Below, one piece after another: positions 2,530 through 54,287 of a stretch of 64,000 nt of DNA. Every line of letters begins with the position of its first letter. The stretch's first letter is position 1. The stretch covers positions 45,130 to 109,129 of the forward strand of contig CAVOLN010000003.1 in NCBI GenBank assembly GCA_963696825.1, written 5' to 3'. This DNA is from Terriglobia bacterium. Lineage in GTDB: Bacteria > Acidobacteriota > Terriglobia > Terriglobales > Acidobacteriaceae. The position numbers and the translations under genes were made by a program. The notes under the pieces are model-generated. The model did not search any database. It was given only the letters and a program-made list of their open reading frames with translations, and was not told where the DNA came from.

Positions 2530-2859
2530 ATGGCAGGTAACGGAATTCTGGAAGTGACCGACGCAAATTTTGACCAGGATGTTCTGAAATCAGATCAGCC
2601 GGTTTTGGTGGACTTCTGGGCATCGTGGTGCGGCCCTTGCCGCGCCCTCGCCCCGATCGTGGACGAACTGGCCAAGGACTATACCGGCAAAATCAAAGTC
2701 GGCAAAATGGATGTGGACAGCAACAGCGCCACGCCCATGCGTTACGGGGTCCGCGGCATCCCCACTCTGCTCGTGTTCAAGGGCGGACAGGTAAAAGAAC
2801 AGATCGTCGGCTACGTTCCCAAAGAGACGATTCAGAAGGCAATCGATAAGCACGTGTAG
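2530..2859 (+). CDS. trxA: Thioredoxin
   Basis: 109 aa with the WCGPC active site and a typical thioredoxin fold sequence (VLVDFWASWCGPCRALAP...GIPTLLVFKGG). Confidence 0.95.
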   Translation: MAGNGILEVTDANFDQDVLKSDQPVLVDFWASWCGPCRALAPIVDELAKDYTGKIKVGKMDVDSNSATPMRYGVRGIPTLLVFKGGQVKEQIVGYVPKETIQKAIDKHV

Positions 2860-2983: not shown

Positions 2984-3604
2984 TCAGTACTTCCGCAACA
3001 CTCCAATCACTTTCCCCTGCACTTCGACCGACGCAGCCGGCACAATGATGGGCTTCATAGTTGCATTGGAAGGCTGCAGGCGAATGTTTTCGCCTTCGCG
3101 GTAGAAGCGCTTGAGCGTGGCGTCGGTGCCTTCAACCAGGGCCACTACGATGTCGCCGTTGTGCGCCGTCCTGCTCTTTTCTACCATCACGTAATCGCCG
3201 TTGAGGATGGCTTCATCCTGCATGGAGTCGCCGCGAACTTCCAGCACGAACACTTCTTTCGAGCGCACAAAATCTGCCAGGGAAATGGTTTCGTTGCTGG
3301 GCACAGCTTCGATGGGCTGGCCGGCGGCAATGCGCCCCATCAGCGGCAGCACCATCGTGGTGTTTACCGACATGGCCTGTTTGAGCCGGCCCTTGGGCGG
3401 CAGCAGGTCGATGGACCGGCTGCGGTTGTAGTCGCGCGTCAGCAGCCCTTTTTTCTCCAGGTTCGAGATGTGCTTATGCACGGTGGCCAGCGAACTGAGT
3501 TCCAGGCCTTCGCCGATCTCCTCGAACGAGGGAGAATAACCGTTCTTCTGCACGAACTCGGAGATGAAGTCGTACACCTGCCGTTGTCGTCGGGTGATTG
3601 CCAT
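2984..3604 (-). CDS. lexA: LexA repressor (S24 peptidase)
   Basis: 206 aa with an N-terminal winged HTH (SPSFEEIGEGLELSSLATVHKHISNLEKKGLL), an AAG cleavage site, a GDSM Ser motif and an LKRF Lys motif. Confidence 0.95.
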   Translation of the reverse strand: MAITRRQRQVYDFISEFVQKNGYSPSFEEIGEGLELSSLATVHKHISNLEKKGLLTRDYNRSRSIDLLPPKGRLKQAMSVNTTMVLPLMGRIAAGQPIEAVPSNETISLADFVRSKEVFVLEVRGDSMQDEAILNGDYVMVEKSRTAHNGDIVVALVEGTDATLKRFYREGENIRLQPSNATMKPIIVPAASVEVQGKVIGVLRKY

Positions 3605-4906: not shown

Positions 4907-5655
4907 CTACAACTGAATTCTGGAAAACAAATATCCTCCCAGCGACAGGAAAGCCACGGCGACGCCGCAGAGTAGGGAGACATCCAGAGCAATGCCAAAA
5001 TGCGACCCGTTGATGAGCACGCCGCGCAGCGCGTCTACGCCGTAGGTGAGGGGATCGAGACGGGTGATGATGGCCAGGGGCTTGGGAAGATTGGTCAGCG
5101 GAAACAAAGCTCCCGACAGGAAGAAAATCGGCAGGACCATGAAATTCATGATCAGCTGAAAACCCTGCATGTCCTGAAGGATCGAGCCAAATGCCGTGCC
5201 CAGCGCCGCGAAGACAATGGCGATCAGCGCCATGAAAACAAATGCCAGCGGAAGAAGCGACAGCTGCGCCGGCCGAAAGCCGGCAATCAGGCAGACCACC
5301 AGGATGAGCGTGCCTTGAAGGACGGCGACGGTGGCGCCGCCCGAAAGTTCGGCCAATCATGACTTCGATTCGCGGAACTGGCGCGACCAGTGTTTCCTTC
5401 AAGAAAGCCAAACTGGCGATCAAACAGCATGGCGATGCCGGAAAAAGTCGCGGTAAAAAGAATCGTCATGCTGATCACGCCCGGGGCCACAAATTGCAGA
5501 TAGCTTCCGTTGCCAGCTTTTTGAAAGACTGGCCCCAGCCCGAAGCCGAGCACCAGAAGATAGAGCAAAGGCTGGCCCAGCGAGGCCACAATTTGTGCCC
5601 GCGAGCGCACATATCGCTTTATTTCCCGCAGCCAGAGAATGTAAATAGCGCTCAT
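4907..5655 (-). CDS. ABC-2 type transporter permease; two apparent 1-nt frameshifts (~5400, ~5350)
   Basis: Three consecutive frames give MSAIYILWLREIKRYVRSRAQIV...FDRQFGF / LKETLVAPVPRIEVMIGRT / GGATVAVLQGTLILVV...YLFSRIQL. The start overlaps the ATPase stop (ATGA). Confidence 0.85.
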
Positions 5656-6558: not shown

Positions 6559-7976
6559 CTACTGGGAGGTCAGGGCTTTCATGAACTGGTAATAAAAATC
6601 CACCGCGCGATAAAACGAATCTACCGGGATGCGCTCATCTTTGCCGTGGGCGCGGATATCATCGCGATCGATGGCCTCGCCGGAAATACAGTATGTCGGC
6701 AACCCTGCGGCGTTGGTGTAAACGCCGTCGGAGGCGCCGGTCGCCATGTCTGGAATCACCGGCAGCCCCGGCCACACGCTGGCCACGACTTTTTCCAGCG
6801 GCTGAAACACGTCCGGGCGCAGCGGCGGAGGCACAAATGACTTGCGGTTGGTTACGCCGCCAATCCCGCCCACCTCGCGCACCGAAATCTTGGGATCAGC
6901 GAAAACTTTTTCCAGCTCCTGCCTGATTTCCTCCGTCGAATGCCCCGGCACGATGCGGCAGTTCACGTTGGCCTTGCGCAGTTTGCGGAAGCGCATTGTT
7001 GGCGTGGCCGGCATTCAGTCGCGTGGCAACGCAGGTGGTGTGCATGATCGAGTTGTCAATCGAGTCCTGCGACAATCGCGCCACTGCCGCCATATCAGGA
7101 GGATTCTTCAGAATCGCCTGCATGTCGGCGGCGCGCTGTCCGGTCGCGACTTTCGACATGCGCTCGTAATAGGCGCGGGTGATATTGGTCAGCTCAAACT
7201 GAAACTGGTAGCGCTCCAGCCGGGCCAGTCCGTCGGCCAGATGGTAGATCGCGTTGTCCGGCTTGGGCAGCGAACTGTGTCCGCCGGGATTAGTGACCGT
7301 TAGTTCGTAGTCGGAGTAGAGTTTTTCCGATGCGTCCACTGACATGAACTGCGGTTTGCCGTGTTCCGAGAGAATCCCGCCGCCATCGTGGTTAATCACG
7401 AATTCGGCGTCGATAAGTTCGCGGTTGTTTCTCAGACAGCCAGTCCACACCGTTCGACGTGCCGCCTTCCTCGTCCGCGGTGAGCGCCAGAATGATGTCG
7501 CGGTCCGGCACGTAGCCTTCCTTCTTGAACCGGATCAGCGTCGTGACCATGATGGCGTCGCCGTCTTTCATGTCCTGGGTGCCGCGACCGTAGTAGTAGC
7601 CGTCTTTTTCGACGAACTGGAACGGATCGGTGGTCCAGTCTTCGCGCCGCGCTTCGACCACGTCGAGATGTCCGATGAGCAGCACCGGCTTGTGCTTCCC
7701 GCTGCCGTGGAAGCGGACCACGAGATTCTTCTTGCGGTCGTTTGGTCCGAGGATGTGAAGGTCGCTCTCGGAAAATCCGGCATCGCGGAAGCGCTGTGCC
7801 ATAGCCTCGGCGGCGGTGGAGACGTTGCCAACAGAGTCTGTGGTGTTGATTTCGATGAGCTGTTTGAAAATATCGTGCGAAAGCTGGCGGGTGGCATCGT
7901 CAATCTGAGCCTGCGAGTGCGAACAAAAAAGTGCAATAAAAAGGGCGAACGACAAAAACCATGTGCAGGTTCTCAA
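6559..7976 (-). CDS. Secreted M20/M25/M40 family metallopeptidase; two apparent frameshifts (~7435, ~7000)
   Basis: Signal peptide MRTCTWFLSFALFIALFCSHSQAQ. Also LLIGHLDVV, GRGTQDMKDG and LTADEEGG motifs. The gene is split over ORFs 7392-7976, 6896-7450 and 6559-7014. Confidence 0.8.
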
Positions 7977-8505: not shown

Positions 8506-9213
8506 GTGGCTAGTGAACCGTCCTGCCCGGGTGCTTCTATGTTCAGATTTGCTGTTCCTATCTTCCTGTTGTTTCTGGCTTTGATTGTGGGCACGGTGGC
8601 ATACACTGCAGGGAACGCGTCCGCAGCCGCGGTTCCTGGCCCGGCAACCGATGCCTCGCTGGCGTCGAAGCCGGGCGAGCAGACTGCCGTGATTGCGGGG
8701 GGATGCTTTTGGGGCATCCAGGCTGTCTTTCAACATGTAAAGGGAGTGATAAGCGCGACCTCCGGGTACTCAGGCGGAGAAGCCAAGACCGCCGAATACG
8801 AGTTGGTCAGCACCGGCGAAACCGGGCATGCGGAATCGGTGAAGATTACCTATGACCCATCGCAGATCACGTATGGTGAACTGCTGCGGGTGTTCTTCTC
8901 AGTAGCCCACGATCCCACGCAGTTGAACCGGCAGGGGCCTGATAGCGGTACTCAGTACCGGTCGGTGATTTTCTACGGCACTGACGAGCAGAAAAAGGTC
9001 GCCGAAGCATATATCGCGCAGCTTGACCAGGCCAAAGTGTTTGCGCGTCCGATTGTGACCCGAGTGGTGCCGCTGAAGGCGTTCTATCCGGCTGAGGCCT
9101 ATCATCAGAACTATGCGACTTTGCATCCGGATCAGCCATACATTGTTTTTAACGATGCCCCGAAGGTGGCGCACCTGCGGCAGGACTTTCCGCAGCTTTA
9201 CACCGGCAAGTAG
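8506..9213 (+). CDS. msrA: Peptide-methionine (S)-S-oxide reductase with N-terminal signal/anchor
   Basis: GGCFWGIQAVFQHVKGVISATSGYSGG motif; hydrophobic N-terminus MFRFAVPIFLLFLALIVG. Confidence 0.9.
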   Translation: MASEPSCPGASMFRFAVPIFLLFLALIVGTVAYTAGNASAAAVPGPATDASLASKPGEQTAVIAGGCFWGIQAVFQHVKGVISATSGYSGGEAKTAEYELVSTGETGHAESVKITYDPSQITYGELLRVFFSVAHDPTQLNRQGPDSGTQYRSVIFYGTDEQKKVAEAYIAQLDQAKVFARPIVTRVVPLKAFYPAEAYHQNYATLHPDQPYIVFNDAPKVAHLRQDFPQLYTGK

Positions 9214-11423: not shown

Positions 11424-11508
11424 TGGGCCATTTTATATGGAGAGTTCGGGAACCGCGGCAACGGGAGGTGAGAAGGCTGGTGCCGCTGGGGCCAGCAAGA
11501 ACCATTAA

Positions 11509-11577
11509 CTACCAAGGACACGAAGGATCACAAAGGAATCTGAAATCCTTCGTGAAACTTCGTGTCCCTGGTGGTTG
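11509..11577. repeat. Inverted repeat (hairpin), CACRRAGGA 9-mer dialect (J)
   Basis: accaaggacacgaaggatcacaaaggaat...tccttcgtgaaacttcgtgtccctggtgg, located between the kynU stop and the GATase start. Confidence 0.7.
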
Positions 11578-11600
11578 ATGCTTTTTCCTGCGTGGCACGC

Positions 11601-12770
11601 CTACACCTTTGATGCTACCGGGCGCACTCTCAGGATTTCATCGACCGCTGTGATCGCGGTCTTGAGCTCTTCATCTCTCGTGTAGAAATGCGGAGCCATG
11701 CGCACGCCGGCTTTGGGTCGATAGTCGACCAAAATGTCGCGCTTGAGGAGTTCGCGGCAGACCTGTTCGGCTTCCGGCATTTCGATGGAAACGGTTCCTC
11801 CGCGCTCCCCTGCTTTCCTGGGCGTATTTACGCGCCATCCGTGCTGTTCCGCCATGGCGATCAAGCGGGAAGTTTGCCGCTGCGATTTTTCTCGAATTCT
11901 CGCAATGCCTATTTCGGCGATGATCTTCAGTCCGGGGCGGGCCGCTTCCAGCGATGGAATGTGTGACGTGCCGTTCATGAAGCGGAATGGGGGCTCGGCG
12001 TAACGCGTCGGCCCCACCTCGAATCCGAACGCGTTCTGGTGCGCGAACCAGCCCGTGAATTTCGGCTGCAGCACCTTCCCGAGATCCGGACGAACATAGA
12101 GATAGGCCACCCCCGGGCCGCCGCACAGCCATTTCAAAACACCCCCACAGGCGAAATCGACGTTCAACGCTTGCACATTCACCGGCACCGTGCCTAAGGA
12201 TTGAAAGGTATCAAGCACCACATGGGCGCCTACTTTGTGGGCCTTTTCGATGATGGCTTTCGCATCCTGGATGTAGGAGCTGCGGAAGATTACGTGCGAG
12301 ACCGGAACCAGCAGGGTCTGTTCATCGATAGCGTCCAGCAACCTGTCGAGAGGAACGGTGATCCCGTCGTCCGTCTTTACCATGTGCACGCGAGCGCCGT
12401 AGGCCTGTTGCGCCTCCCAGAAATACATCACGGAAGGGAAATTCATGTCGCTGTATACGACTTTGTTGCGCTTGCCGGAGAAATCAAAACAGGAAGCCAC
12501 CACGGCTTGGCAGGTGGTGACATTCTGATGGGTCGAAACTGAACTTGCAGGCGCGTTCATCAGGGCGCCAATCTCGTCGCCGACCTGCGCGGCCAGCATC
12601 CACCAGCGTTCTTCCCAGGCACGCACGCCGCGCGTCGCCCAGGTGTCGGCATAGCCTTTCAGGGCGTCATAGACGCCTTTCGGCATCGCGCCCAGCGAAT
12701 TGCTGATGAGATAGGTGGTGCGCTCCAGAATGGGGAAGTTTGAACGATAGCGGAAAAGCTCATCGGCCAT
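11601..12770 (-). CDS. kynU: Kynureninase-family PLP-dependent enzyme (class V aminotransferase fold)
   Basis: Start chosen at MADELFRYRSNFPILERTTYLISNSLGAMP. Has the DFACGGVLKWLCGGPG lysine region and FYTRDEEL near the C-terminus. The ORF track extends to 13091 but that upstream part is not protein-like. Confidence 0.75.
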   Translation of the reverse strand: MADELFRYRSNFPILERTTYLISNSLGAMPKGVYDALKGYADTWATRGVRAWEERWWMLAAQVGDEIGALMNAPASSVSTHQNVTTCQAVVASCFDFSGKRNKVVYSDMNFPSVMYFWEAQQAYGARVHMVKTDDGITVPLDRLLDAIDEQTLLVPVSHVIFRSSYIQDAKAIIEKAHKVGAHVVLDTFQSLGTVPVNVQALNVDFACGGVLKWLCGGPGVAYLYVRPDLGKVLQPKFTGWFAHQNAFGFEVGPTRYAEPPFRFMNGTSHIPSLEAARPGLKIIAEIGIARIREKSQRQTSRLIAMAEQHGWRVNTPRKAGERGGTVSIEMPEAEQVCRELLKRDILVDYRPKAGVRMAPHFYTRDEELKTAITAVDEILRVRPVASKV

Positions 12771-12905
12771 ATGATGTATTGTACTGTGCGTCCGGGCTTG
12801 TATACTTCGGCAGGATGAGCAAATCAGTCCGACAACTCCGCGGCATCTCAGCGCATCCAAAGTTTGAATTTTAAGCGTGTCTTTGTATTTTTGGACAGGA
12901 GAGCA

Positions 12906-13025
12906 ATGATAGCCATGAAAGCAATCAGAAACATTCTGGGCACGGCGGGCCTGCTTTACGCGGGGTATGTGATCCTCATGAGCGTGAAAGATGTTCGCCG
13001 CTACATTCGAATCAGCACAATGTAA
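12906..13025 (+). CDS. Small membrane protein (39 aa), not in the ORF track
   Basis: AGGAGA at 12896-12901, then ATG. MIAMKAIRNILGTAGLLYAGYVILMSVKDVRRYIRISTM has one TM helix plus a basic ...RRYIRISTM tail. It resembles a short conserved family ending ...RYL(K/R)IRSM, from memory and unverified. Confidence 0.45.
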   Translation: MIAMKAIRNILGTAGLLYAGYVILMSVKDVRRYIRISTM

Positions 13026-13030
13026 TAGTG

Positions 13031-13117
13031 GCAGTTTGGGGTGGTGGACATACTGAAAGCGGTCTGCAGTCTTCAGTCGCAGGCAAATCAAACCACCGAC
13101 GAACGACGACTAAACTG
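13031..13117. repeat. Imperfect inverted repeat, GTCGTCR-like dialect
   Basis: cagtttggggtggtgg ... ctgcagtcttcagtcgcagg ... ccaccgacgaacgacgactaaactg, located between the convergent small ORF and the permease. Confidence 0.4.
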
Positions 13118-18318: not shown

Positions 18319-18873
18319 TTGAAACTTTCGTCCAAACTAAGATCCAAGGTGCTCGAGGGCAAACTCAACGCGGGCGGGAAGGGCTACGCAATCGTTGTCT
18401 CCCGCTTCAATGCCTTTATCACTGATCGGCTGTTGCAAAGCGCACACGATGGGCTGATGCAATGCGGTGCCGAAGCCAACGACATCAAAATCGTTCGCGT
18501 CCCGGGCGCTTTTGAAATCCCGTCCGCCGCCCGCACGCTTGCCGAAACCAAAAAGTACGACGCCATCATCTGCCTGGGATGCCTGTTGCGCGGCGATACC
18601 GCGCATTACGACGTCATCGTCAACGAAGTCACGCGTGGCATTGGACAATCCGCGCAAGAGACGGGCGTGCCGCACGCTTTTGGCGTTCTCACTTGCGACA
18701 CCCTGGAACAAGCCATCGATCGCGCCGGCCTGAAGATGGGCAACAAGGGTTTCGAAGCTGCGCTGGCGGCGGTGGAGATGGCGAATCTGAAGTTAGTCGT
18801 CGGTCGTCAGTCGTCAGTCGTTGGCAAGATCTCCAAGCAGAAATCGAATTCCACGAAGACCAAGTCCCGATAG
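18319..18873 (+). CDS. ribH: 6,7-dimethyl-8-ribityllumazine synthase; 3' tail read through a repeat arm
   Basis: GKGYAIVVSRFNAFITDRLL...VPGAFEIP...HYDVIVNEVTRG...FGVLTCDT. TTG start. The tail VVGRQSSVVGKISKQ... is encoded by agtcgtcggtcgtcagtcgtcag. Confidence 0.9.
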   Translation: MKLSSKLRSKVLEGKLNAGGKGYAIVVSRFNAFITDRLLQSAHDGLMQCGAEANDIKIVRVPGAFEIPSAARTLAETKKYDAIICLGCLLRGDTAHYDVIVNEVTRGIGQSAQETGVPHAFGVLTCDTLEQAIDRAGLKMGNKGFEAALAAVEMANLKLVVGRQSSVVGKISKQKSNSTKTKSR

Positions 18874-18950
18874 AAGCGCCATCCTCTTTCCGAAATCCAC
18901 TCCTGCTGTAGACTGAATCCTGACGACTGAAGACCGACGACTGACGACTG
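18795..18950. repeat. Inverted repeat, GTCGTCR dialect (A/A'), bridging ribH 3' end to nusB start
   Basis: Left arm 18795-18824 agtcgtcggtcgtcagtcgtcagtcgttgg; right arm 18919-18950 cctgacgactgaagaccgacgactgacgactg. The nusB ATG is 4 nt later. Confidence 0.75.
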
Positions 18951-18954
18951 CTCC

Positions 18955-19371
18955 ATGGGAACCCGCCGCCAATCTCGTGAACTTGCCCTGCAGATGCTTT
19001 TTCAGGCTGATATGGGGAAGCAGGATCCCGGTCAGGTCCGGAAAACGTTTTGGCGTGAGCGCGAGGACGTTGGCGGCGACGTGCAGAGCTTTGCTGAAGA
19101 CCTGTTTCGAGTGGCTACCAGCCGGGCGACTGAAATCGACGGCCTGATCGAAGGTCATGCCGAGCATTGGCGCATGGAGCGCATGGCTGCGGTCGACCGC
19201 AACCTGCTGCGCGCCTCGGTTGCGGAACTGCTCGCCTTTCCTACCACTCCCCGCGCCGTAGTCATCAACGAAGCTTTGGAAATCGCGCGCAAATTTTCCA
19301 GCCCGGAGTCGGTGCAATTTATCAATGGTGTGCTGGACAGCGTAGGTAAGCAATTGGAAAGCAGTCGTTAG
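18955..19371 (+). CDS. nusB: Transcription antitermination factor NusB
   Basis: MGTRRQSRELALQMLFQADMG... and RMAAVDRNLLRASVAEL; conserved ribH-nusB gene pair. Confidence 0.9.
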   Translation: MGTRRQSRELALQMLFQADMGKQDPGQVRKTFWREREDVGGDVQSFAEDLFRVATSRATEIDGLIEGHAEHWRMERMAAVDRNLLRASVAELLAFPTTPRAVVINEALEIARKFSSPESVQFINGVLDSVGKQLESSR

Positions 19372-19508
19372 TCGCCAGTCGTCGGTCGTCAGCCCAGAAC
19401 CGACACCGCCAGGCAGCGTATATCCTTACATCGTCCGGGATGGCACGAACGAGGACGCTCGCGCCTACATTGCAGGGCCAACGGCCAAAGACCAACGACC
19501 AACGACTG
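19362..19508. repeat. Inverted repeat between convergent genes (A arm / GTCGTTG-complement arm)
   Basis: cagtcgttagtcgccagtcgtcggtcgtcag (overlaps the nusB stop) and ggccaacggccaaagaccaacgaccaacgactg. Confidence 0.65.
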
Positions 19509-23445: not shown

Positions 23446-25645
<2,200 letters not shown>

Positions 25646-29003: not shown

Positions 29004-29296
29004 TGAAATCCGCATATCAGATCATTCGCCGTCCGGTGATTACGGAAAAGGGTCTGGCCATCAAGGAAAACCAGAACACGCTGGTCTTCCAGGTGGCGAA
29101 GGCCGCGACCAAGACCGAGATCCGGGAAGCGGTGCAGTCGATTTTCAAGGTGAAGGTGCATTCGGTGCGCACCGCGCTCTATCCCGGAAAAGAACGCCGC
29201 CGGGGAAAGTTTGCCGGCTACCGTCCCGACTGGAAAAAAGCGTTCGTGCGGCTGAAGTCCGGCGAAAAGATGCCGGAGTACGCGCAGAACTTATAG
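29003..29296 (+). CDS. rplW: 50S ribosomal protein L23
   Basis: MKSAYQIIRRPVITEKG...; 97 aa. Confidence 0.95.
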   Translation: MKSAYQIIRRPVITEKGLAIKENQNTLVFQVAKAATKTEIREAVQSIFKVKVHSVRTALYPGKERRRGKFAGYRPDWKKAFVRLKSGEKMPEYAQNL

Positions 29297-29380
29297 TCGT
29301 CAGTCGTCGGTCTTCAGTCGTCAGGAAGGCCGGTGAGGCGCAAGGATTTTGTGAGCTGACGACCGACGACTGAGAGCTGA
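29295..29380. repeat. Intercistronic hairpin, GTCGTCR dialect (A/A'), rplW stop to rplB start
   Basis: 29300-29317 pairs with 29356-29373 (17 of 18 positions). The left arm overlaps the rplW TAG and the right arm ends 4 nt before the rplB ATG. Confidence 0.85.
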
Positions 29381-29384
29381 TTTT

Positions 29385-30212
29385 ATGCCAATCAAGACAT
29401 ACAGACCGACTACGCAGACGTTGCGCTACCGGACCACGCTGGTCAACGACGACATTACGACCCGGCATCCGCACAAGCCGCTGCTCGAGCCCAAGCAGCG
29501 CACCGGCGGACGCCGCAACAGCGGCGACACCACCATGTGGCATCGCGGCGGCGGCCACAAGCGCAAGCTGCGCCTGATCGACTTCAAGCGCGACAAGAGC
29601 GGCATTCCGGCGACGGTGGCTTCGATCGAATACGATCCCAACCGTTCGGCGCGCATCGCGCTGCTGAGCTACGCCGACGGCGAGAAGCGCTACATTCTGC
29701 AGCCCGACGGGCTGAAGGTCGGACAGAAAGTGGTCAGCGGTCCGGAAGCGGACATCCTGGTGGGCAATGCTTTGCCGCTGAAGAATATTCCGCCGGGCAC
29801 GACCATCCACAACATCGAGTTGAAGCCCGGCAAGGGCGCGCAGATGGTGCGTTCGGCGGGCGGTTCGGCGCAACTGGTGGCCAAGGAAGGCGAGTACGCG
29901 CTGGTCAAGCTGCCTTCCGGCGAGACCCGCAAAGTGTCGCAGGATTGCATGGCGACGATCGGCCAGGTGGGAAATCTGGATCACGAAAACGTCACCATCG
30001 GCAAAGCGGGACGCATGCGCTGGCTGGGACGGCGTCCGGTGAATCGCGGTGTCTCCATGAACCCGGTCGACCATCCGCATGGCGGCGGTGAAGGCAAGAC
30101 TTCGGGCGGCCGGCATCCGGTGACGCCGTGGGGACAGCCGACGCGCGGCTACAAGACGCGCAACAACAAGCGTACGGATGCGTTCATCGTGAACCGAAGA
30201 GGGAAGAAGTAG
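29385..30212 (+). CDS. rplB: 50S ribosomal protein L2
   Basis: 275 aa, intact. ...[15 protein letters not shown]...HPHGGGEGK.... Confidence 0.97.
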
Positions 30213-30294: not shown

Positions 30295-30334
30295 CTGTTA
30301 GCTGAGAGCTGACGGCTGAAAGCTGAGAGCTGAC
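30295..30334. repeat. Heptamer-repeat arm, GCTGARR dialect (B); ends 3 nt before rpsS ATG
   Basis: ctgttagctgagagctgacggctgaaagctgagagctgac then tttATG. Confidence 0.8.
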
Positions 30335-30337
30335 TTT

Positions 30338-30781
30338 ATGGCACGTTCAACCAAGAAGGGTCCGTTCGTGGATGGCTACCTGCAGGCGCGGGTGGACGGC
30401 ATGAACTCGCGCAATGAGAAGAAGGTGCTGCGCACCTGGTCGCGGCGCTCGACCATCATTCCGGAGATGGTGGGCCACACCATCGCGGTGCACAACGGCA
30501 AGAAATTTATTCCGGTGTACGTCACGGAAAACATGGTGGGCCACAAGCTGGGTGAATTCAGCTTTACCCGCCAGTTCAAGGGTCACTCGATGCGGGCGGC
30601 CACGGAAACTGCGGCCCGGCCGGCAGGCGTGCCCGGCGGTCCGGGAGCGATCACTCCGGCGGCGGGACCGGCTCCGGCCAGCGCCGGCGCCGAAGGCGTA
30701 AAGGAGAAGCATCAGACATGGAATTTCGAGCTCAAGTCCGCTTCACCCGGGTGTCGCCGCAGAAGGCGCGCCTGGTGCTGA
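30338..30781 (+). CDS. rpsS: 30S ribosomal protein S19 with atypical Ala/Pro/Gly-rich C-terminal extension overlapping rplV
   Basis: The canonical S19 core [12 protein letters not shown]...[16 protein letters not shown] ends near 30610. The ORF runs on to 30781. A stop in another frame at 30699-30701 precedes an AAGGAGA SD for rplV, so an indel is possible. Confidence 0.85.
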
Positions 30782-31878: not shown

Positions 31879-31903
31879 GAGAAGCTAGAAGCTAAGAGCT
31901 GAC
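31879..31903. repeat. Heptamer-repeat arm (C/B hybrid); ends 3 nt before rplP ATG
   Basis: gagaagctagaagctaagagctgac then tttATG. Confidence 0.75.
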
Positions 31904-31906
31904 TTT

Positions 31907-32323
<417 letters not shown>

Positions 32324-33741: not shown

Positions 33742-33830
33742 AGCTTCTAGCTGCTAGCTCCTGGCTGCTAGCTAGAGCACGAGGCATCCGGAGTTTGGAG
33801 CTAGAAGCTAGGAGCCAGTAGCTAGAAGCT
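33742..33830. repeat. Intercistronic hairpin, GCTAGRA dialect (C'/C): 32-bp stem
   Basis: 33742-33773 pairs with 33799-33830: 32 positions with 2 mismatches and 2 G-U pairs, checked base by base. The loop is 25 nt. Confidence 0.9.
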
Positions 33831-35337: not shown

Positions 35338-35455
35338 GGCAGCTGCTAGCTACTAGCTTCTGGCTACTAGCTAAGCAAAAGCGGTAAGTCAAAACAGAGC
35401 GTGGTGATCGTAGAAACGCGACTTGGCTAGAAGCCAGGAGCTAGAAGCTAGAAGC
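35338..35455. repeat. Intercistronic hairpin, GCTAGRA dialect (C'/C), rpsH stop to rplF start
   Basis: Left arm ggcagctgctagctactagcttctggctactagctaagc; right arm acttggctagaagccaggagctagaagctagaagcc. The rplF ATG is 2 nt later. Confidence 0.85.
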
Positions 35456-35457
35456 CT

Positions 35458-35999: not shown

Positions 36000-36130
36000 G
36001 TCGTTGGTCGTTGGTCTTGGTCGTTGGCCAACCCCGAACGGCAGCGGACTGGGATCGCTCTGAGGAACATGCAAGAAGTCGTGCGTCGATCGGTCTTAGC
36101 CGAACGACCAACGACCGAACGACCAAGGAC
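36000..36130. repeat. Intercistronic hairpin, GTCGTTG dialect (D/D')
   Basis: Left arm gtcgttggtcgttggtcttggtcgttggc; right arm gccgaacgaccaacgaccgaacgaccaaggac. The rplR ATG is 7 nt later. Confidence 0.8.
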
Positions 36131-36137
36131 TGAAAAA

Positions 36138-36504: not shown

Positions 36505-36614
36505 CAATTGAGTAATTGAGGTAATTGAGAAATTGAGTAATTGAAAGATCGAGTCATCGGTGATTGAGATCTTCAAATTACTCAATTGCTCAATTGCCCA
36601 ATTACCAAATATTG
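36505..36614. repeat. Intercistronic hairpin, TAATTGAG 8-mer dialect (E/E')
   Basis: Left arm caattgagtaattgaggtaattgagaaattgagtaattgaaagatc; right arm gatcttcaaattactcaattgctcaattgcccaattacc. Confidence 0.85.
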
Positions 36615-37140: not shown

Positions 37141-37360
37141 ATGCCCAACAAATTGGCCAAGAAATCGTAGTGCGGGCAGCGGCGCCAAAATCCATTTGAA
37201 ATGGGTGCGTTCCGCCATTTGCGCTCCGGTGCAACAGAAGCTGGTGGTCAAAGGTCTGGGCTTTACCCGGCTGAACCAGGTGATCGAGCGCCCGGACAAC
37301 CCGGCCATCCGCGGCATGGTGGCCAAGGTGCCGCATCTGGTGGAGATCGTTCAATCATAA
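37141..37360 (+). CDS. rpmD: 50S ribosomal protein L30 (absent from ORF track); one apparent 1-nt insertion (~37168)
   Basis: MPNKLAKKS then, in the next frame, SAGSGAKIHLKWVRSAICAPVQQKLVVKGLGFTRLNQVIERPDNPAIRGMVAKVPHLVEIVQS; hand-translated. Confidence 0.8.
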
Positions 37361-37429
37361 GCTGTCAGCTCATCAGCTCTCAGCAAAACCAGAGCTGAGC
37401 TGAGAGCTGACAGCTGACAGCTGAGAGCT
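37361..37429. repeat. Intercistronic hairpin, GCTGARR dialect (B'/B), rpmD stop to rplO start
   Basis: gctgtcagctcatcagctctc (37361-37381) pairs with gagagctgacagctgacagc (37402-37421), with 1 bulge and 1 mismatch. The rplO ATG is 5 nt after the tract. Confidence 0.85.
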
Positions 37430-37434
37430 TATTT

Positions 37435-39405: not shown

Positions 39406-40127
39406 ATGGCGGAGGCAACCTCGCGCGGCATCGGACCTGTCATCCTGCTCGGCTCGCCGGGTGCCGGCAAGGGTACGCAGGCCAAGCAGATCGTGGAGCG
39501 TTACCGCATCCCGCAGATTTCTACGGGAGACCTGCTGCGGGAGAACGTGCAGCGCGGCACTCCGCTGGGGGTCGCGGCCAAGGATGTGATGGCGCGGGGA
39601 GAGTTCGTTCCCGACGACCTGATGTACGACATGGTGGCGCAGCGCTTGCGGCAGGCGGACTGCGAGCGCGGTTTCATTCTGGATGGTTTTCCCCGCAATC
39701 CGGCCCAGGCCGGATGGCTGGATGCGTTTCTGGAGCACGAGTTCTTTGACAACGCGCAAGCGCGAGCAAGTGTCTGCCCATTGTGATCCGAATTAACGTG
39801 GATTATAATAAGTTGTTGCGTCGGATTACTGGACGCCGTTCTTGTCCCGTCTGTGGACGGATCTACAACGTCTACTCCCAGCCACCCCGTGTCGCTGATC
39901 GATGCGATGTTGATGGTTCTACGCTGGTGACCCGCGAAGATGACCGTGAAGAAGTCATCCGGGATCGACTGGCGGCCTACGAACTGCAGACCAAGCCCGT
40001 AGCCGAATATTACGCGCGCAAAGGGCGGCTGGTTTCGGTGAATGGCGACCTGCCGGTGAATCAGGTCACCGAGCAGATTTTCAAGGTGATCGAGAGCCAG
40101 CGCGGCGTGGCTGCCGGCAAAAGCTGA
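39406..40127 (+). CDS. adk: Adenylate kinase with zinc-lid (CPVC...C..D); one apparent 1-nt deletion (~39770)
   Basis: [16 protein letters not shown]-loop; [10 protein letters not shown]; [12 protein letters not shown] lid. Confidence 0.92.
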
Positions 40128-41791: not shown

Positions 41792-41804
41792 AAAGTCAGC
41801 TGTC

Positions 41805-41852
41805 TAGCTTCTAGCTCCTAGCTAGAAGCTAAAGGCTAGGAGCTAGAAGCTA
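41805..41852. repeat. Intercistronic hairpin, GCTAGRA dialect: perfect 18-bp stem enclosing an AGGAG
   Basis: tagcttctagctcctagc (41805-41822) is the exact complement of gctaggagctagaagcta (41835-41852). The loop is 12 nt and the rpsK ATG is 3 nt later. Confidence 0.92.
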
Positions 41853-44422: not shown

Positions 44423-44939
44423 ATGCGTCACAAAGTAGCAGGATGGAAACTGGGACGTAACACCAGCCACCGCCGCTCGTTGCTGCGGAACCTGGTGACT
44501 TCGCTCATCCTCGAAGAGCGAATCGAGACCACCGTGCCCAAGGCCAAGGCCCTGCGTCCGCTGGTCGAGAAGATGATCACGCTGGGCAAGCGCGGCGATC
44601 TTTCCGCGCGCCGCCAGGCCGGCGCCTACCTGATGACCAGCGCCGCGGTGGACAAGCTTTTCGACACCATCGGCTCCTCGTTTCGGCGACCGCGAAGGCG
44701 GATACCTGCGCATTGTTCGCGCCGGATGGCGCAAAGGCGATGGCGCCGACACCGCATTCGTCGAACTGCTGGGCAGCGAGAAGCTGCAGGAAGAAAAGCG
44801 CGAGAAGCGTGCCGAAGCCCGTTCCAAGCGCGCCGAAGAAGCCAAGCGCGCGATGGAAGAAGCCGAGGCGCAGCAAGGTGTCGAGCATCCCGCTGACCAC
44901 GCCGAAGGCGCCGACAAGGTCAAAGAAGAAAAAGAGTAA
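44423..44939 (+). CDS. rplQ: 50S ribosomal protein L17 with charged C-terminal extension; one apparent 1-nt insertion (~44680)
   Basis: [24 protein letters not shown]...KLFDTIG / [22 protein letters not shown]...KVKEEKE. Confidence 0.92.
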
Positions 44940-48638: not shown

Positions 48639-48740
48639 GGGCATTGAGTAGTTGGGAAATTGCGCAATTTAGTAATTTTCGAACCTGGAGTCCCAGGCTT
48701 CAAATTACAAAATTACCCAATTACAAAATTACTCAGTTGC
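48639..48740. repeat. Intercistronic hairpin, TAATTGAG-like dialect (E/E') with central cctgg-agtc-ccagg
   Basis: gggcattgagtagttgggaaattgcgcaatttagtaattt / caaattacaaaattacccaattacaaaattactcagttgc. Confidence 0.75.
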
Positions 48741-48772
48741 AGAGTTCCCGTTGGTTCTGACTGGAATTATCT

Positions 48773-50313
48773 ATGGCAAGTGAGCTCTATAACACGATCG
48801 ACGCGTTGAGCCGGGAAAAGGGCATTGATCCGCAAATTGTGGTGAGCGCGGTGGAAGATGCCATCGTGGTCGCCACGCGCAAGTATTACAAGACGCAGGA
48901 AAACCTGCGCGCCGAACTGGACAAGGAAACCGGCAAGATCCGCGCCTTTGCGGTCAAGACGATCGTCGAGACTCCGGAGCAGGTGGAAGATCCCGTCCTG
49001 CAGGTCACGCTGGATGATGCTCGCAAGATCAATCCCAACGTCGAGTTGGGGGCGAGCTGCAGATCAACAAGCAGACCGAAGGAATTCTGGGACGCATCGC
49101 GGCGCAACTGGCCAAGCAGGTCATCTTTCAGAAGGTGCGCGAAGCGGAACGCGACACTGTTTACAACGAGTACATCGGCCGCGTCGGCGAGATCGTAAAC
49201 GCCACGGTGAAGCGCATCGAAGGTCCGGATGTGATCTTCGATATCGGCAAAGCCGAAGCGCGCATGCCGCGCAAGGAGCAGTCGCGGCTGGAGTCGTTCG
49301 CCATGGGCGAGCGCGTTCGGGTGGTGATCGCCCGGGTGGAACGGGCCTCGAAAGGGCCGGCAGTCGTGGTTTCCCGCGCCGCGCCGGAGCTGGTGCAGCA
49401 CCTGTTCCAGACTGAAGTTCCCGAAATCTACGACGGAACGGTCGTGATCCGCGCGATCGCGCGCGAAGCCGGCGAGCGCACCAAGATCGCGGTCATGTCG
49501 AAGGACAAGGACGTGGACGCGGTGGGCGCCTGCGTCGGCATGAAGGGCATGCGGGTGCAGTCCATCATCCGCGAACTGCGCGGCGAGAAGATCGACATCA
49601 TCGAGTATCACGAAGATCCGGTGACCTTCGCGGAAAAGGCGTTGCAGCCGGCCAAGGTGAGCCGCGTGACCGTGGTCGATGCCGGCGACAAGCATCTGGA
49701 AGTGGTGGTGGACGACAGCCAGCTTTCGCTTGCCATCGGCAAGAAGGGACAGAACGTCCGCCTGGCGGCGAAGCTGCTGGGCTGGAAGATCGACATCAAG
49801 AGCGAGGAAGAGAAGCGGCAGGAAGTGGAGCAGCAGATGTCCGCGCTGGTGGGCTCCGCCTCCACTCCGCTGGAGAGCGTGCCCGGCCTGGGCGAAGGGC
49901 TGATCGAGAAGCTGAGCGCTGCCGGCATGACCACGGTCGAAGCCCTGGCCGACATGACGCCCGAGCAACTGGAAGCCATCGAAGGAATTGGCCCCAAGAC
50001 GGTGGAAAAAATCAGCCTGGCGGTGAATAATTATTTCTGCCAGCCTGGAGTCGGGCGAAGCCGGTGAGCAGTCGCCGCGCCGCTTGAAGGCGACGAGCTC
50101 CCTGCGGAAGACGTGGCTGAGGAATCGGCTGCGAGCGCGGAAGCTGCGAGCGAAACCGAAGAAGCTGCGGTCGAGACCGAAGAAGCCGCGGCCGAGGCGG
50201 CCCCGGAGGAAGTAGCTGCTGTCGACGAAAGCGCCGGGCAGACTGAATTGCCGGAAGCTTCGGAATCGTCGGAAACCTCGGAGGAGCCTGGTCCTTCTGA
50301 GGAAAAGCAGTAA
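48773..50313 (+). CDS. nusA: Transcription termination/antitermination factor NusA with acidic C-terminal tail; about three frame breaks (~49055, ~50033, ~50082)
   Basis: S1 and KH domains (...GRVGEIVNATVKR..., ...VGACVGMKGMRVQSIIRELRGEKIDII..., ...LAIGKKGQNVRLAAKLLGWKIDIK...). The tail is ...EESAASAEAASETEEAAVETEE.... Confidence 0.92.
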
Positions 50314-50421: not shown

Positions 50422-53320
50422 ATGAGTAAGATTCGAATCAACGATCTGGCAAGGGAGCTGGAAGTTAAAAGCAAATCGATTCTCGATGTACTTCCGGAGG
50501 TTGGAGTCACCGAGAAGAAGAGCCATTCCAGTTCTCTCGAAGACCATGAAGCGGACAAGGTGCGCGCGCAGTTCCGCGCTGCCAGCCAGGCGCAGACTTC
50601 GAGCCGGTCCTCGCGCCCGGGCCGCGCCGAAGCGGACGAAATCAAGACCAAGATCGATCTTTCCCACATTTCCAAGCCTGGCGACGCGCTGAAAGCCATC
50701 ATCAGCAAGCAACAAGGACCCGCGGCCGCAGCCGCCCCGCCGTCGGCTACAGCGCCGCCGGTCGAAACCAAGCCCGTGGCCGCGCCCGCCCCGCCCGCGG
50801 CGAAACCTCCAGCTCCGAAGCCGCCGACTCCTCCGCCGCTGGCGGCGCCAAAATTTGTGGTTCCGACTGCAACTCCGCGACCGACATTTACGGCTCCCGC
50901 GGCTCCGGCTGCCGCCTCAGTCCGCGGCCCCGGTGGCTCCGGTTGCGCCGCGGCCTGCAGTGCCGCCGCCGCGGCGCCAGCCGCACACGCCGTCCACAAC
51001 ACCAGCTGCCGCGCCACCGCGACCCGCCGCGCCTCCGGCAGCCGCCGTTCACGGCGGGCCGGCCAGTCGAGCCGAGCGGCGCCGGCGGCTCCGCAAGCGC
51101 CTCCGCCACGAATGATCGTTCCGCAGACCGGGCCGCGTCCGGTGTACAAGGCGCCTTTGCGACCAGCGCCGCCTGCAGGTTTATCGACCGCGCCTGCGGG
51201 TGCGCGTCCCGCTCCAGGACGTCCGGTGCCAGGCCAGCCGATTTTCCAGCGCCCGCGCCCGGGCGCCCCAACCAATCGTCCGCCATTGCGCCCGGGCGAG
51301 CGCCGGCCCATGCATCCGACGCGCCAGTCGCCCACCGGCACGCGCCCACTGGGCGTTGGGCCGGGAGCTGTGCCTCCGGGCCCGGCGGCACGGCCCGGCA
51401 GCCGGCCGGGTGCGCCATCGCGCCGGCCGGGACAGCGCTATGTTCCGCGTGGCGTGAAGGAAGGCCCGATGAAGGGCTACACGCCGCCGCCGCGGCTGTC
51501 GCTCTCCAATGAGCCGCAGCCGATCACGCGCAGCATCACCATCACGGAAGGCATCAGCGTCAAAGATCTGGCGGAGAAGCTGGGGCTTCGCGCCAAGGAT
51601 TTGATCGCCCGCCTGCTGGCCCGCGGCGTGTTTGCCACCATCAACCAGACGCTCGACACCGAACTGGCCAGCGAGATGGCGCGTTTCTTCGGAGCCGACA
51701 CCAACGTGATCACCTTCGAAGAGCAGGCTGCCAAGGAAGTTTCCGAAGCTGCCGCGGGTGAAGAAGGCGACTCCCACGGAAGGCGTGCCGCGTCCGCCGG
51801 TGGTCACCATCATGGGCCACGTGGATCACGGCAAGACCACGCTGCTCGATTCCATCCGCCTGACCAACGTGGCCGGAGGCGAAGCCGGCGGCATCACGCA
51901 GCACATCGGCGCTTACAAGGTAACGATTCTGGACAAGGAGTCTCCCGCCTACGGCCGCCAGATCGTGTTTCTCGACACGCCCGGTCACGAAGCCTTTACC
52001 CGCATGCGTGCCCGCGGCGCCAAGGCCACCGACATCGTCGTGCTGGTCGTGGCCGCCGACGACGGCGTGATGCCGCAGACGCTCGAAGCCATCGATCACG
52101 CCCACGCCGCGGAAGTGCCGATCATTGTCGCGGTGAACAAGATCGACAAGCCGGATGCGTTGCCGGACCGAGTGAAGAAGCAGCTGGCCGATCGCGGTCT
52201 GATGCCGGAAGACTGGGGCGGAACCACGGTGTTCGTCGACGTCTCGGCCAAGCAGAAGACCAATCTGAACCTGCTGATGGAAATGATCTGCCTGGTGGCC
52301 GACCTGCAGGAATTGAAGGCTACGCCCGATCGTCCTGCAACCGGCGTGGTTCTCGAAGCCAAGCTGGATCGCGGTCGCGGACCCGTGGCCACCGTGCTGG
52401 TGCAGAACGGCACCTTGCGCACCGGCGACAACTTCGTCGTCGGCAACGTGTACGGCAAGGTGCGCGCCATGTTCGACGATCGCGGCGCGCAGCTGGAAAC
52501 CGCTCCTCCTTCCACTCCGGTCGAGATTCTGGGTATGGAAGGATTGCCGCAGGCCGGCGATCAGTTCGTGGTGGTCGCCGATCGCGACAAAGCGCGCGGC
52601 ATTTCCGAATACCGCGAACAGAAAGCTCGCGAAGCCACGCTGGCCAAGAGTTCCCGCGTTTCGCTGGAAGGCCTGGCGGAGCAGCTGAAGACTGCCGGCA
52701 CCAAGGAACTGAACATCATTCTGAAAGCCGACGTGGGCGGATCGGTGGAAGTGCTGAGCGATCTGCTGACCAAGCTTTCGAACGACAAGGTGCGGCTGAA
52801 GGTTCTGCGCTCCGGCGTAGGCGCCATCACCGAGTCCGACGTGCTGCTGGCTTCGGCTTCGAACGCCATCATCATCGGATTCAACGTGCGTCCGGAGCGC
52901 AAGGCGCAGGAGCTGGCGGAGCAGGAGAAGGTCGATATCCGGCTGCACTCGATCATTTACGAGTTGCAGGACGAGATCAAGCGCGCCATGACCGGCCTGC
53001 TCGAGCCGACCATCAAGGAAACCTACCAGGGCCGCGCCCAGGTGAAGGAGACCTTCCGCATCCCGAAGGTCGGCACGATTGCGGGATGCTCGGTCACCGA
53101 TGGCATCATCAAGCGCGACTCCGAAGTCCGCCTGCTGCGCGACAACAACGTCGTCTTCACGGGCAAGGTCGGCTCGCTGCGGCGCTTCAAGGACGATGCC
53201 AGCGAAGTGCGCAACGGCATGGAGTGCGGCATCTCGATCGCGAACTACGGCGACATCAAAGTCGGCGACGTGATCGAAGCCTTCGTGACCGAGAAGGTTG
53301 CCGCGGAAGCCATAGCTTGA
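50422..53320 (+). CDS. infB: Translation initiation factor IF-2; at least one (probably three) frame breaks (~50925?, ~51090?, ~51770)
   Basis: N-terminal [22 protein letters not shown], a Pro/Ala-rich linker, a GTPase domain with [25 protein letters not shown] and NKIDK, and an intact C-terminal domain. Confidence 0.93.
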
Positions 53321-53323
53321 AAA

Positions 53324-53394
53324 GCAGTCGTCAGTCGTCGGTCGTCAGTCGTCAGCAAATCGCTGACGACTGACGACCGAGGACTGACGACCGC
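53324..53394. repeat. Intercistronic hairpin, GTCGTCR dialect: 33-bp stem with 2 mismatches, 5-nt loop
   Basis: Base-by-base pairing of 53324-53356 with 53362-53394. It starts 4 nt after the infB stop and ends on the base before the DUF503 ATG (53395). Confidence 0.93.
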
Positions 53395-53682
53395 ATGATC
53401 GCTTTTCTCACCCTCGAACTGCACATCGAAGCGGCGCAGTCGCTCAAAGACAAGCGGCAGGTGGTCCGCAGCCTGAAAGACCGTCTGCGCGCGCACTTCA
53501 ACGTGGCGGTGGCGGAACTGGATCCCAGCGGGCTGTGGAACCGGGCTACCATCGGCGTGGTCGGCATTTCGGATTCGCGCGACTATCTCGACGGCCTGAT
53601 GAAGAATGTGGAGCGCCAGGCGACTCGCATCGCCAACAACGGCGGCGCGGATATTGCGGATTCATTCGTGGAATATCTGTAG
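53395..53682 (+). CDS. DUF503 (YlxP-like) protein
   Basis: 95 aa. MIAFLTLELHIEAAQSLKDKRQVVRSLKDRL...; conserved position between infB and rbfA. Confidence 0.8.
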   Translation: MIAFLTLELHIEAAQSLKDKRQVVRSLKDRLRAHFNVAVAELDPSGLWNRATIGVVGISDSRDYLDGLMKNVERQATRIANNGGADIADSFVEYL

Positions 53683-53803: not shown

Positions 53804-53811
53804 TCAGGTCG

Positions 53812-53835
53812 TTCGTCCGCGCGGGCGACCTTTTT
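53812..53835 (+). terminator. Weak terminator-like hairpin upstream of rbfA
   Basis: tcgtcc-gcgc-gggcga (one G-U pair) followed by cctttttc. Confidence 0.3.
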
Positions 53836-53870
53836 CTGATATTCTCATTCGTTTTACTCAAGAGGTGGGT

Positions 53871-54235
53871 GTGGAGAAGCGCGGCGCGAAATATCATCGG
53901 GAGCGCCTGGGAGAGGCCCTGCGGGAGGAGATTGAAACCATCGTGGAAGGGCGAGCTGGGCGATCCCGCGCATCGGGCTGGTGAGCGTGACCAGCGTGGT
54001 GTTGGCGGAGGATTCGCGCTCGGCGCAAGTGTTCGTGACCCTGGACGGAGATGACGAAGAAGCCGAGCGTTCGCTGGAAGGCCTGACCGCGGCAGTCGGA
54101 TTTATCCGTCGCGAGGTGGCCGAGAATTTGCACCTGCGTCGTCCTCCGGAATTGTATTTTCACCTGGACCGCTCCGACCAATACGGCGCCAGAATCGACG
54201 AATTGCTAGGCCGCACGCGGAAGAAGAAAAAATAG
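53871..54235 (+). CDS. rbfA: Ribosome-binding factor A; two apparent 1-nt insertions (~53950, ~53968)
   Basis: GTG start. ...YHRERLGEALREEIETIVEG / ELGDP / RIGLVSVTSVVLAEDSRSAQVFV...LRRPPELYFHLD. Confidence 0.88.
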
Positions 54236-54287
54236 TCTCGGTCGGTCTTCATCAGACTCGGAAACGGCTGAAGACTGACGACTGCGA
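54234..54287. repeat. Imperfect hairpin, GTCGTCR-like dialect, rbfA stop to nrnA start
   Basis: agtctcggtcggtcttcatcag / gctgaagactgacgactgcga. Confidence 0.55.

Follow-up and report, generated by a model that had tools for sequence, protein, structure and literature searches.

Bacteria have been known since 1990 to carry dispersed heptamer repeats. Among the systems described to date, the hairpin-forming short tandemly repeated repetitive (STRR) sequences of cyanobacteria come closest to the element analyzed here, a hairpin that fills the spacer between infB and a DUF503 gene in a 64,000-nucleotide stretch (positions 45,130 to 109,129 of contig CAVOLN010000003.1, hereafter the window) from a Terriglobia bacterium of the Acidobacteriaceae. 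STRR sequences are 7-bp repeats, hairpin copies of which lie between hupS and hupL, where transcript stabilization or translational coupling has been proposed (PMC2670836). The element shares with them its 7-nt tandem units, its dispersal over many intergenic sites, and the formation of hairpins, some of them between cotranscribed genes; the Nostoc units ttgtcag, ttgttag, and actgacy also share a CAGT/ACTG core (PMC2408588). However, STRR sequences were defined in heterocystous cyanobacteria, whereas the host here is a member of the Acidobacteriaceae with a G+C content of 59%. Moreover, the two-arm palindrome is here the rule, it spans the distance from stop to start codon, it is found in most intercistronic spacers of ribosomal protein (r-protein) genes, and its conservation at orthologous sites, with turnover of the unit, is documented over more than 60 relatives. 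We regard the element as STRR-like rather than as a member of the STRR family.

The TAACTGA repeats of marine Beggiatoaceae, Cyanobacteria, and Bacteroidetes stand 1 nt before starts that lack a Shine–Dalgarno (SD) motif, including starts in r-protein operons (MacGregor 2015, PMC4679880). The arrays described here likewise end a few nucleotides from an SD-less start and contain, in forward orientation, an ACTGA core and stop codons, but TAACTGA repeats are direct, have no predicted structure and include one inverted set among 170, whereas here an inverted partner and a long stem are always present. The GGGAATC arrays of Xanthomonas are shared between related species at equivalent intergenic positions, where they vary in length and sequence and include some inverted pairs (PMC4692102). 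They resemble our repeats as intergenic heptamer arrays sometimes arranged in inverted pairs able to form stem-loops, and differ from them in being G-rich, prone to G-quadruplex formation, and mostly direct; a span from stop to start codon has not been described for them. The repetitive extragenic palindromes (REP) of Proteobacteria, with their composite forms BIME and REPIN, are high-copy elements for which roles in mRNA stabilization and termination have been proposed (PMC3733652, PMC3116915). They too are short palindromes that often lie between cotranscribed or convergent genes and form mRNA hairpins; unlike the present repeats, they have a family-conserved sequence, a GTAG/CGTC tag, a link to REP-associated tyrosine transposases (RAYT), and no 7-nt periodicity. 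We rejected a REP/REPIN assignment: there is no common tag, CGTC being found only inside the CAGTCGT unit and being absent from AGCTAGA, GTCGTTG, and AATTGAG. No RAYT (IS200/IS605-like) transposase was noticed among the window open reading frames (ORFs) examined, no search having been aimed at RAYT. A miniature inverted-repeat transposable element was rejected as well, the flanks (TTGAAAA and ATGATC) showing no target-site duplication and the interior consisting of a 5-nt loop only. A 2014 survey, for which four Acidobacteria genera were available, scored the representation of 7-nt repeats in them as normal, a 2022 preprint still called the role of heptamer repeats unresolved, and no account of such hairpins turned up in our literature searches on heptamer (heptanucleotide) repeats in Acidobacteria.

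All features of the locus lie on the plus strand. The infB stop codon TGA (53318–53320), placed by sequence reading, Pfam, and the orthologous C-terminus TE[KR][VI]AAE[AV][IM]A and stop, is followed by an AAA linker (53321–53323) and by the left (5′) arm of the hairpin (53324–53356), which reads GCAGTCGT CAGTCGT CGGTCGT CAGTCGT CAGC. The apical loop AAATC (53357–53361), delimited by the sequence, the RNA fold, and comparison with orthologs, separates it from the right (3′) arm (53362–53394), whose last base directly precedes the ATG of the DUF503 gene (53395–53682; PF04456, E-value 2.5e-26). The stem base thus lies 3 nt 3′ of the infB stop and 0 nt 5′ of the DUF503 start in a spacer of 74 nt. 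A repeat finder gave two arms of 33 nt, 94% complementary and 5 nt apart; 31 of the 33 positions pair, with mismatches at A53326/C53392 and G53337/G53381, so that the near-perfect 33-bp duplex described by an earlier, sequence-only reading of this DNA is real. As that reading stated, the stem spans the whole spacer; it leaves no free ribosome-binding site. What that reading had overlooked is the tandem build of both arms, which Tandem Repeats Finder resolves with period 7 into 4.4 copies of CAGTCGT and 4.1 copies of CTGACGA. The RNA from 53300 to 53420 has a minimum free energy (MFE) of −71.6 kcal/mol against a shuffle mean of −35.4 (z = −11.7; 0 of 200 shuffles as stable), and the hairpin region folds as single-stranded DNA at −40.7 kcal/mol (z = −11.9). 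The MFE structure contains 29–31 pairs, arranged as 19 bp, a 1 × 1 mismatch, and 10 bp.

This build is not peculiar to the locus. A probe of two CAGTCGT units matched the window 34 times, where 0.46 matches would be expected, the hits including about 12 other loci. We counted 22 strict period-7 arrays in its 64 kb; Tandem Repeats Finder reported dozens of other period-7 arrays, often as inverted pairs, with units such as AGCTGAC, AGCTAGA, GTCGTTG, TGAGAGC, GAACTGA, and AATTGAG-like sequences. The 31 spacers that we folded form long hairpins made of heptamer arrays, and about 30 other spacers of the window carry hairpins built from CAGTCGT or other heptamers. By our count, an array or hairpin is found in about 21 of the 33 intercistronic spacers of the r-protein cluster. 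Filling the spacer is the norm for these hairpins and not a peculiarity of infB-DUF503. Because hairpins of the same build fill most r-protein spacers as well as spacers between convergent genes, the stem is not specific to the nusA-infB operon: it belongs to a dispersed class of heptamer-repeat palindromes and is not a dedicated RNase III site of that operon. In this class, one arm is a short 7-nt tandem array and the other its inverted copy. Such palindromes fill spacers between genes and between cistrons not only in this Acidobacteriaceae genome but also in those of its soil relatives and of other Acidobacteriota. Orientation of the hairpins relative to genes was classified by anchoring on the arrays, many flanks being left unassigned.

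Orthologous spacers were compared among relatives. A scan of soil metagenomes for DUF503 yielded 80 loci (82–99% protein identity), in 65 of which the infB stop could be placed by the conserved C-terminus; 65 spacers entered the folding analysis, 62 the measurement of geometry, and 63 the SD and strand comparisons. Nearly all are 60–125 nt long and contain one long hairpin each, with 50 of the 65 at z ≤ −4 and most of the others still possessing heptamer arms. The stems have 24–38 pairs with few mismatches, and the medians are 3 nt from stop to stem and 1 nt from stem to start. The position of the hairpin is thus kept across more than 60 relatives while its unit is replaced: depending on the lineage, we found CAGTCGT, GTCGTTG, CAGTGGC, CAGTTTC, CAGTTCTC, AGCTCTT, ATCAGCT, or CCCTGAT, and the sequence of the stem is not conserved between orthologs despite its kept structure. 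When the stems are aligned, however diverse, all units share one register: a G in the left arm and a C in the right arm, each near-invariant, recur at intervals of 7 nt, which gives the template YRGTNNY / RNNACYR. In this alignment, 86.4% of cells are paired, compared with 69.2% in shuffles (0 of 500 reach the observed value) and 23–48% in slid controls, and two-sided changes in 19 of 22 pairs indicate extensive compensatory change, in sequences that are related to one another and from which the structure itself was derived. When the left half of one locus is joined to the right half of another, the resulting chimeras fold less stably than the native spacers (−0.32 vs. −0.51 kcal/mol per nt). 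Loops change faster than arms, and the AAATC loop of the window is inverted relative to the xTTTG loop of its nearest relatives (L081, L084, L087, L102, and L105 in our locus set), L100 being flipped likewise. To judge from the sequences, the inverted loop points to recombination between the arms inside the palindrome, at the DNA level.

Starts that abut such hairpins mostly lack an SD motif. GGAG, GAGG, or AGGA occurs within 22 nt of the DUF503 start, which is ATG or in several cases TTG, in only six of the 63 orthologous spacers and is missing from the other 57. By our count, a GGAG-type motif at −7 to −16 is present in 3 of 13 hairpin-abutted genes of the window and in 9 of 13 others, the latter including tuf, rplW, rplV, rpsH, infA, rpsM, and rpoA, whereas the abutted genes rplB, rpsS, rplP, rpmC, rplF, rpsE, rpmJ, rpsK, and nusB are mostly without it. 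Where a hairpin ends at least 15 nt upstream of a start, an SD is present in the gap (rplE, infA, rpoA, and rplQ), and outgroups without the hairpin have short spacers, some of them with an SD. The sole SD-like string of the infB-DUF503 spacer, GAGGA (53379–53383), lies within the right arm, 11 nt 5′ of the ATG, and is probably incidental. Its middle G (G53381) forms the G–G mismatch, but we rejected the idea that the mismatch was selected to create an SD, because the SD-like 4-mers found in six of 63 orthologs compare with three of 63 in the mirrored left arm. A role of stop codons as a general rule was rejected too: the abundant GTCGTTG/CAACGAC family contains none, and the TGA codons in the right arm of the infB-DUF503 stem (at 53364, 53371, and 53385) cover only the two frames not used by infB. 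As a separate observation, a near-identical (A/G)AGCTGA(C/T)TTT-ATG string precedes rplB, rpsS, and rplP (29365–29387, 30318–30340, and 31887–31909), and similar CTGAYTT-ATG contexts are found at rpmC, rpmJ, and rplO; such strings may constitute a recurrent SD-less start context.

The sequence-only reading had proposed that the stem either blocks independent initiation on the downstream cistrons or marks an RNase III cleavage site. The first proposal, in its simple form, does not hold, since stems of the same kind, without a well-placed SD, adjoin the essential genes rplB, rpsS, rplP, rplF, rpsE, and rpsK, and such highly expressed genes must be translated. We tentatively prefer, while granting it somewhat less than an even chance, an explanation in which an STRR-like heptamer palindrome generated at the DNA level folds in the mRNA, loops out the spacer, and couples translation of DUF503 to that of infB. 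Replication slippage would enlarge the 7-nt arrays, and templating or recombination within the palindrome would keep the arms complementary and could invert the loop, so that the palindrome would persist although its unit drifts. In the polycistronic mRNA, the stem of about 30 bp would loop out the entire 74-nt spacer and, because its base lies 3 nt after the stop and 0 nt before the start, would bring the infB stop and the DUF503 start next to each other in space. A free 30S subunit would be unable to load on the buried, SD-less start region, whereas a ribosome terminating on infB could melt the base of the stem and reinitiate across it (termination-reinitiation, a form of translational coupling). 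Because it would cancel its own length, such a self-folding insert could be tolerated even between essential r-protein cistrons, which would also account for the tolerance of self-folding inserts alone where cistrons are tightly coupled. Protection of the upstream 3′ end and occasional cleavage by RNase III are possible side effects. The dependence of DUF503 on infB translation, which we read from the geometry and the missing SD, is compatible with the data.

Several points weigh against this explanation. The argument for coupling is sequence-based throughout, drawn from the geometry and the absence of an SD. A terminating ribosome should, given the size of ribosome footprints, open only the lowest few base pairs, and we know of no bacterial precedent for reinitiation across the 20 or more base pairs of stem that would remain. 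The same hairpins also fill the stop-to-stop spacers of convergent genes (2862–2985 and 19362–19508), so that a filled spacer may simply be the outcome of array growth that halts where coding sequence begins. The occurrence of hairpins in every spacer type equally suits a strong rival, according to which the repeat is neutral or selfish: produced by slippage and quasi-palindrome template switching, it would be functionless, harmless because it folds on itself, and merely tolerated, the downstream genes being translated by unrelated SD-independent routes. This alternative, which we regard as possible though rather doubtful, also agrees with the fast turnover of units and loops between close relatives, including the inverted loop shared by the window and L100, and with the patchy distribution described below. 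Heptamers are, besides, the commonest class of long simple-sequence repeats in bacteria, a fact attributed to polymerase slippage (PMC4679880, PMC4692102). The neutral alternative accounts less well for a hairpin kept at one site over more than 60 relatives despite unit turnover, for the tight abutment of stem and start with loss of the SD, and for the short, in some cases SD-bearing, spacers of hairpin-less outgroups.

Strand asymmetries, examined to distinguish an RNA from a DNA element, show a modest signal for the sense strand. In the 63 orthologous spacers, G–U pairs number 196 in the sense and 141 in the antisense strand, and the sense strand is the more stable in 39 (Wilcoxon p = 0.06); for heptamer hairpins between codirectional genes, it is the more stable in 24 of 32 (p = 0.007), and loops have more T than A in 24 cases and more A than T in nine (p = 0.002), these samples not being phylogenetically independent. 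This modest bias toward sense-strand stability and T-rich loops counts in favor of the coupling explanation and speaks against full neutrality. Against coupling, on the other hand, the sense-strand bias is weak and the sequences are phylogenetically related, the antisense RNA of the infB-DUF503 stem folds marginally better than its sense RNA (−65.0 vs. −63.6), and A–C mismatches are common (44), nearly as frequent as expected without selection at the RNA level, which fits maintenance at the DNA level and adds to the case for a neutral repeat. We conclude that the hairpins are kept largely at the DNA level, with in addition some selection or mutation bias tied to the direction of transcription.

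Intercistronic hairpins cut by RNase III occur in the early mRNA of phage T7 and, in Escherichia coli, between rpsO and pnp and between rplL and rpoB; like the present ones, they are long stems in polycistronic mRNAs of translation-related genes. RNase III requires about 20 bp of double-stranded RNA, or about two helical turns. That the stem exceeds this length, as the sequence-only reading had stated, is borne out by the 29–31 pairs of the MFE structure, and the 24–38 pairs with few mismatches in relatives likewise lie above it. Here, cleavage would separate infB from DUF503-rbfA, and the r-protein polycistrons in the same way, as in T7. Duplex length and position are thus in keeping with the RNase III proposal: the stems are intercistronic and on the sense strand, and the retention of structure without conservation of sequence would suit a structure-specific nuclease. 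The part that fails is its specificity, since nothing about the stem is particular to the operon, the stem type being generic over about 30 spacers, and no site-specific conservation of a processing signal is seen. Sites in T7 and E. coli are, by contrast, individually conserved, often have internal loops that direct single cuts, and retain the downstream SD, whereas these are generic repeats without SD; a cleaved downstream cistron would need its own initiation, yet 57 of the 63 orthologous spacers are without an SD-like motif. The E. coli nusA-infB operon, invoked as a precedent, does not transfer either, because its RNase III sites lie in the leader upstream of rimP/nusA and not in the infB-rbfA interval. 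Finally, the identical stem type between convergent genes needs no processing. We consider a dedicated role in RNase III cleavage quite unlikely.

Very unlikely, in our judgment, is a transcript-end element, either a terminator or attenuator without U-tract ("I-shaped") or a barrier to 3′ exonucleases like the REP sequences of E. coli, setting the ratio of infB to DUF503-rbfA. The stem is stable, GC-rich, and starts right after the stop codon, a nested GC hairpin with a T-run is present in the apex of the hairpin in some relatives and of the trxA/lexA hairpin, and transcript stabilization has been proposed for STRR sequences (PMC2670836). However, the sequence 3′ of the stem, CAUGAUCGC, is not a U-tract, and the operons could not be expressed if transcription ended efficiently in almost all r-protein spacers. 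The stem is not an intrinsic (Rho-independent) terminator, being followed by CATGATCGC and unlisted in our terminator scan. The same scan does find a canonical terminator at 53806–53831 on the plus strand, between DUF503 and rbfA and 410 nt downstream of the stem, in which a hairpin of 11 pairs is followed by TTTTCTGATA; its presence suggests that transcription of rbfA may be in part separate from that of infB-DUF503. Nested terminator-like apices comparable to that of the trxA/lexA hairpin were also seen in relatives L119, L126, L144, and L156.

The shared register allows another interpretation, in which the near-invariant G–C plus a U–A step in each 7-nt unit is read by a protein. Candidates would be a cold-shock-domain (Csp) protein, which would bind one heptamer per monomer and melt the stem, ribosomal protein S1, or a DNA-binding or HUH-type enzyme. 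The near-invariant G and C recur every 7 nt across unit families, the CAGT/ACTG core is also found in Nostoc repeats and in TAACTGA, and each Csp protein binds a single heptamer, according to the review in PMC4679880. Yet our work on the window yielded no candidate protein, other Acidobacteriota use unrelated units (TTGATAA, GAAGGAT, AAAGGCA, and TAAATCG), and the conserved core may simply reflect shared ancestry, so that we hold such an array of binding sites to be highly improbable.

The sibling hairpins of the window illustrate the diversity of units and settings within the class, the intercistronic ones in the following list being on the plus strand. CAGTCGT arms are found between ribH and nusB (18794–18950), where they enclose an interior of about 100 nt and end 4 nt before the nusB ATG at 18955, and between rplW and rplB (29294–29373). 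Other units form the hairpins of rplX-rplE (33742–33830; AGCTTCT / AGCTAGA), rpsH-rplF (35341–35456; AGCTACT / GCTAGAA, ending 1 nt before the rplF ATG at 35458), rplF-rplR (36000–36134; GTCGTTG / CAACGAC), rplR-rpsE (36506–36605; AATTGAG-type units), rpmD-rplO (37360–37431; AGCTCTC / GAGCTGA), and rpsM-rpsK (41798–41852; TAGCTTC, with an 18/18-bp core, ending 3 nt before the rpsK ATG at 41856). In the operon of infB itself, they occur between rimP and nusA (48652–48750; AATTAC-type units) and between rbfA and the DHH/DHHA1 gene (54236–54286; CAGTCTT / AAGACTG). Of the two between convergent genes, one (2862–2985) separates trxA (2530–2859, plus strand) from lexA (2984–3604, minus strand) and contains the nested GC-rich hairpin and T-run; the other (19362–19508) separates the end of nusB from a minus-strand ORF. 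The ribH ORF (18319–18873) extends across the left arm of the hairpin that separates it from nusB, its DMRL-synthase domain ending near 18793; its last 26 or so codons would then consist of heptamer repeats, if the true stop is not masked by an indel. The longest inverted repeat of the window lies elsewhere, at 11493–11537 / 11546–11590, next to the minus-strand ORF 11601–13091 and immediately upstream of it; its 45-nt arms are 80% complementary and stand 8 nt apart.

Beyond close relatives, period-7 arrays reach densities per 10 kb of 3.4 in the window, 2.0 in the 80 metagenomic relatives, 1.1 (patchily) in other Acidobacteriota, and 0.17 in other phyla; in the same comparison, arrays of period 8 and 9 are almost absent. 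Heptamer hairpins are found after infB and in neighboring spacers in other classes of Acidobacteriota, namely in L014 (5545–5621 and 5981–6055), in L015 (Thermoanaerobaculia; after infB), and in L017, a member of the Pyrinomonadaceae (5538–5615, 7080–7173, 7768–7829, and 8865–8936). These are near-perfect and built of units unrelated to those of the window, and successive spacers of one operon differ in unit (TTGATAA, AAGTGAC, AGAGGTT, AAAGGCA, TAAATCG, and others). L021 has a hairpin at about 950–1016, and near-perfect heptamer hairpins are also present in one metagenome-assembled genome (MAG) labeled delta proteobacterium. As several contigs carrying them are short-read assemblies, the hairpins are not an artifact of long reads. 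Conversely, no period-7 arrays occur in 9.5 kb of the close relatives L003–L005, which implies that the repeat load varies sharply between related lineages, while L001 carries CAGTTGT arrays 3′ of infB. In the closest relatives from the genome collection, infB and DUF503 lie 0.36–2 kb apart, without a short hairpin spacer (L005, 5536–7619; L001, 5612–6352; L002, 5508–5872).

The genes around the hairpin were identified from ORF translations and confirmed by Pfam. The ORF at 51758–53320 is infB (IF-2, GTP_EFTU, and EF-G_D2 domains), its closest IF2 sequences, at 73–93% identity, coming from Acidobacteriaceae MAGs. RimP and NusA are encoded on its 5′ side, and RbfA (C-terminal part at 53981–54235) followed by an nrnA-like DHH/DHHA1 gene 3′ of DUF503; a str/S10/spc/alpha r-protein cluster occupies 22388–44939. 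No Rfam family was detected at the gathering threshold anywhere in the 64-kb window, nor any tRNA or tmRNA gene. Several essential genes appear split between frames: infB (51768–51773), nusA (about 49135–49198), fusA (about 24905–25191), and rpsC (about 31358), with further apparent splits in adk (about 39750–39786), rplQ (about 44637–44896), and rbfA (about 53869–54054). For infB, one extra base is present relative to three relatives (L081, L082, and L089). The most likely cause of these splits is not real frameshifting but single-base indel errors in a long-read assembly.

Genomes of this kind will be mishandled by gene finders and models of ribosome-binding sites, and assembly and frameshift errors concentrate in their long palindromic spacers. 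On a much broader and, in our view, unlikely hypothesis, heptamer hairpins would form a general SD-independent "stop-stem-start" cassette, a bacterial analog of ribosome shunting, used throughout the r-protein and nusA-infB operons of Acidobacteriota. Such a cassette would account as well for the STRR and TAACTGA repeats close to start codons in Cyanobacteria and Beggiatoaceae, and the 7-nt register, with one fixed G–C/U–A step per unit, would reflect a mechanical constraint or reading by a protein. More immediately, more than 60 close relatives that keep a stop- and start-abutting hairpin at one intercistronic position while its unit is replaced provide a comparative data set, with which the question of heptamer-repeat function becomes one of testable alternatives, namely coupling across the stem, RNase III processing, and neutral palindrome dynamics. 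Dispersed heptamer repeats as such were already known; what is added here is the presence in Acidobacteriota of STRR-like palindromes with an unusually well-conserved stop-stem-start geometry.

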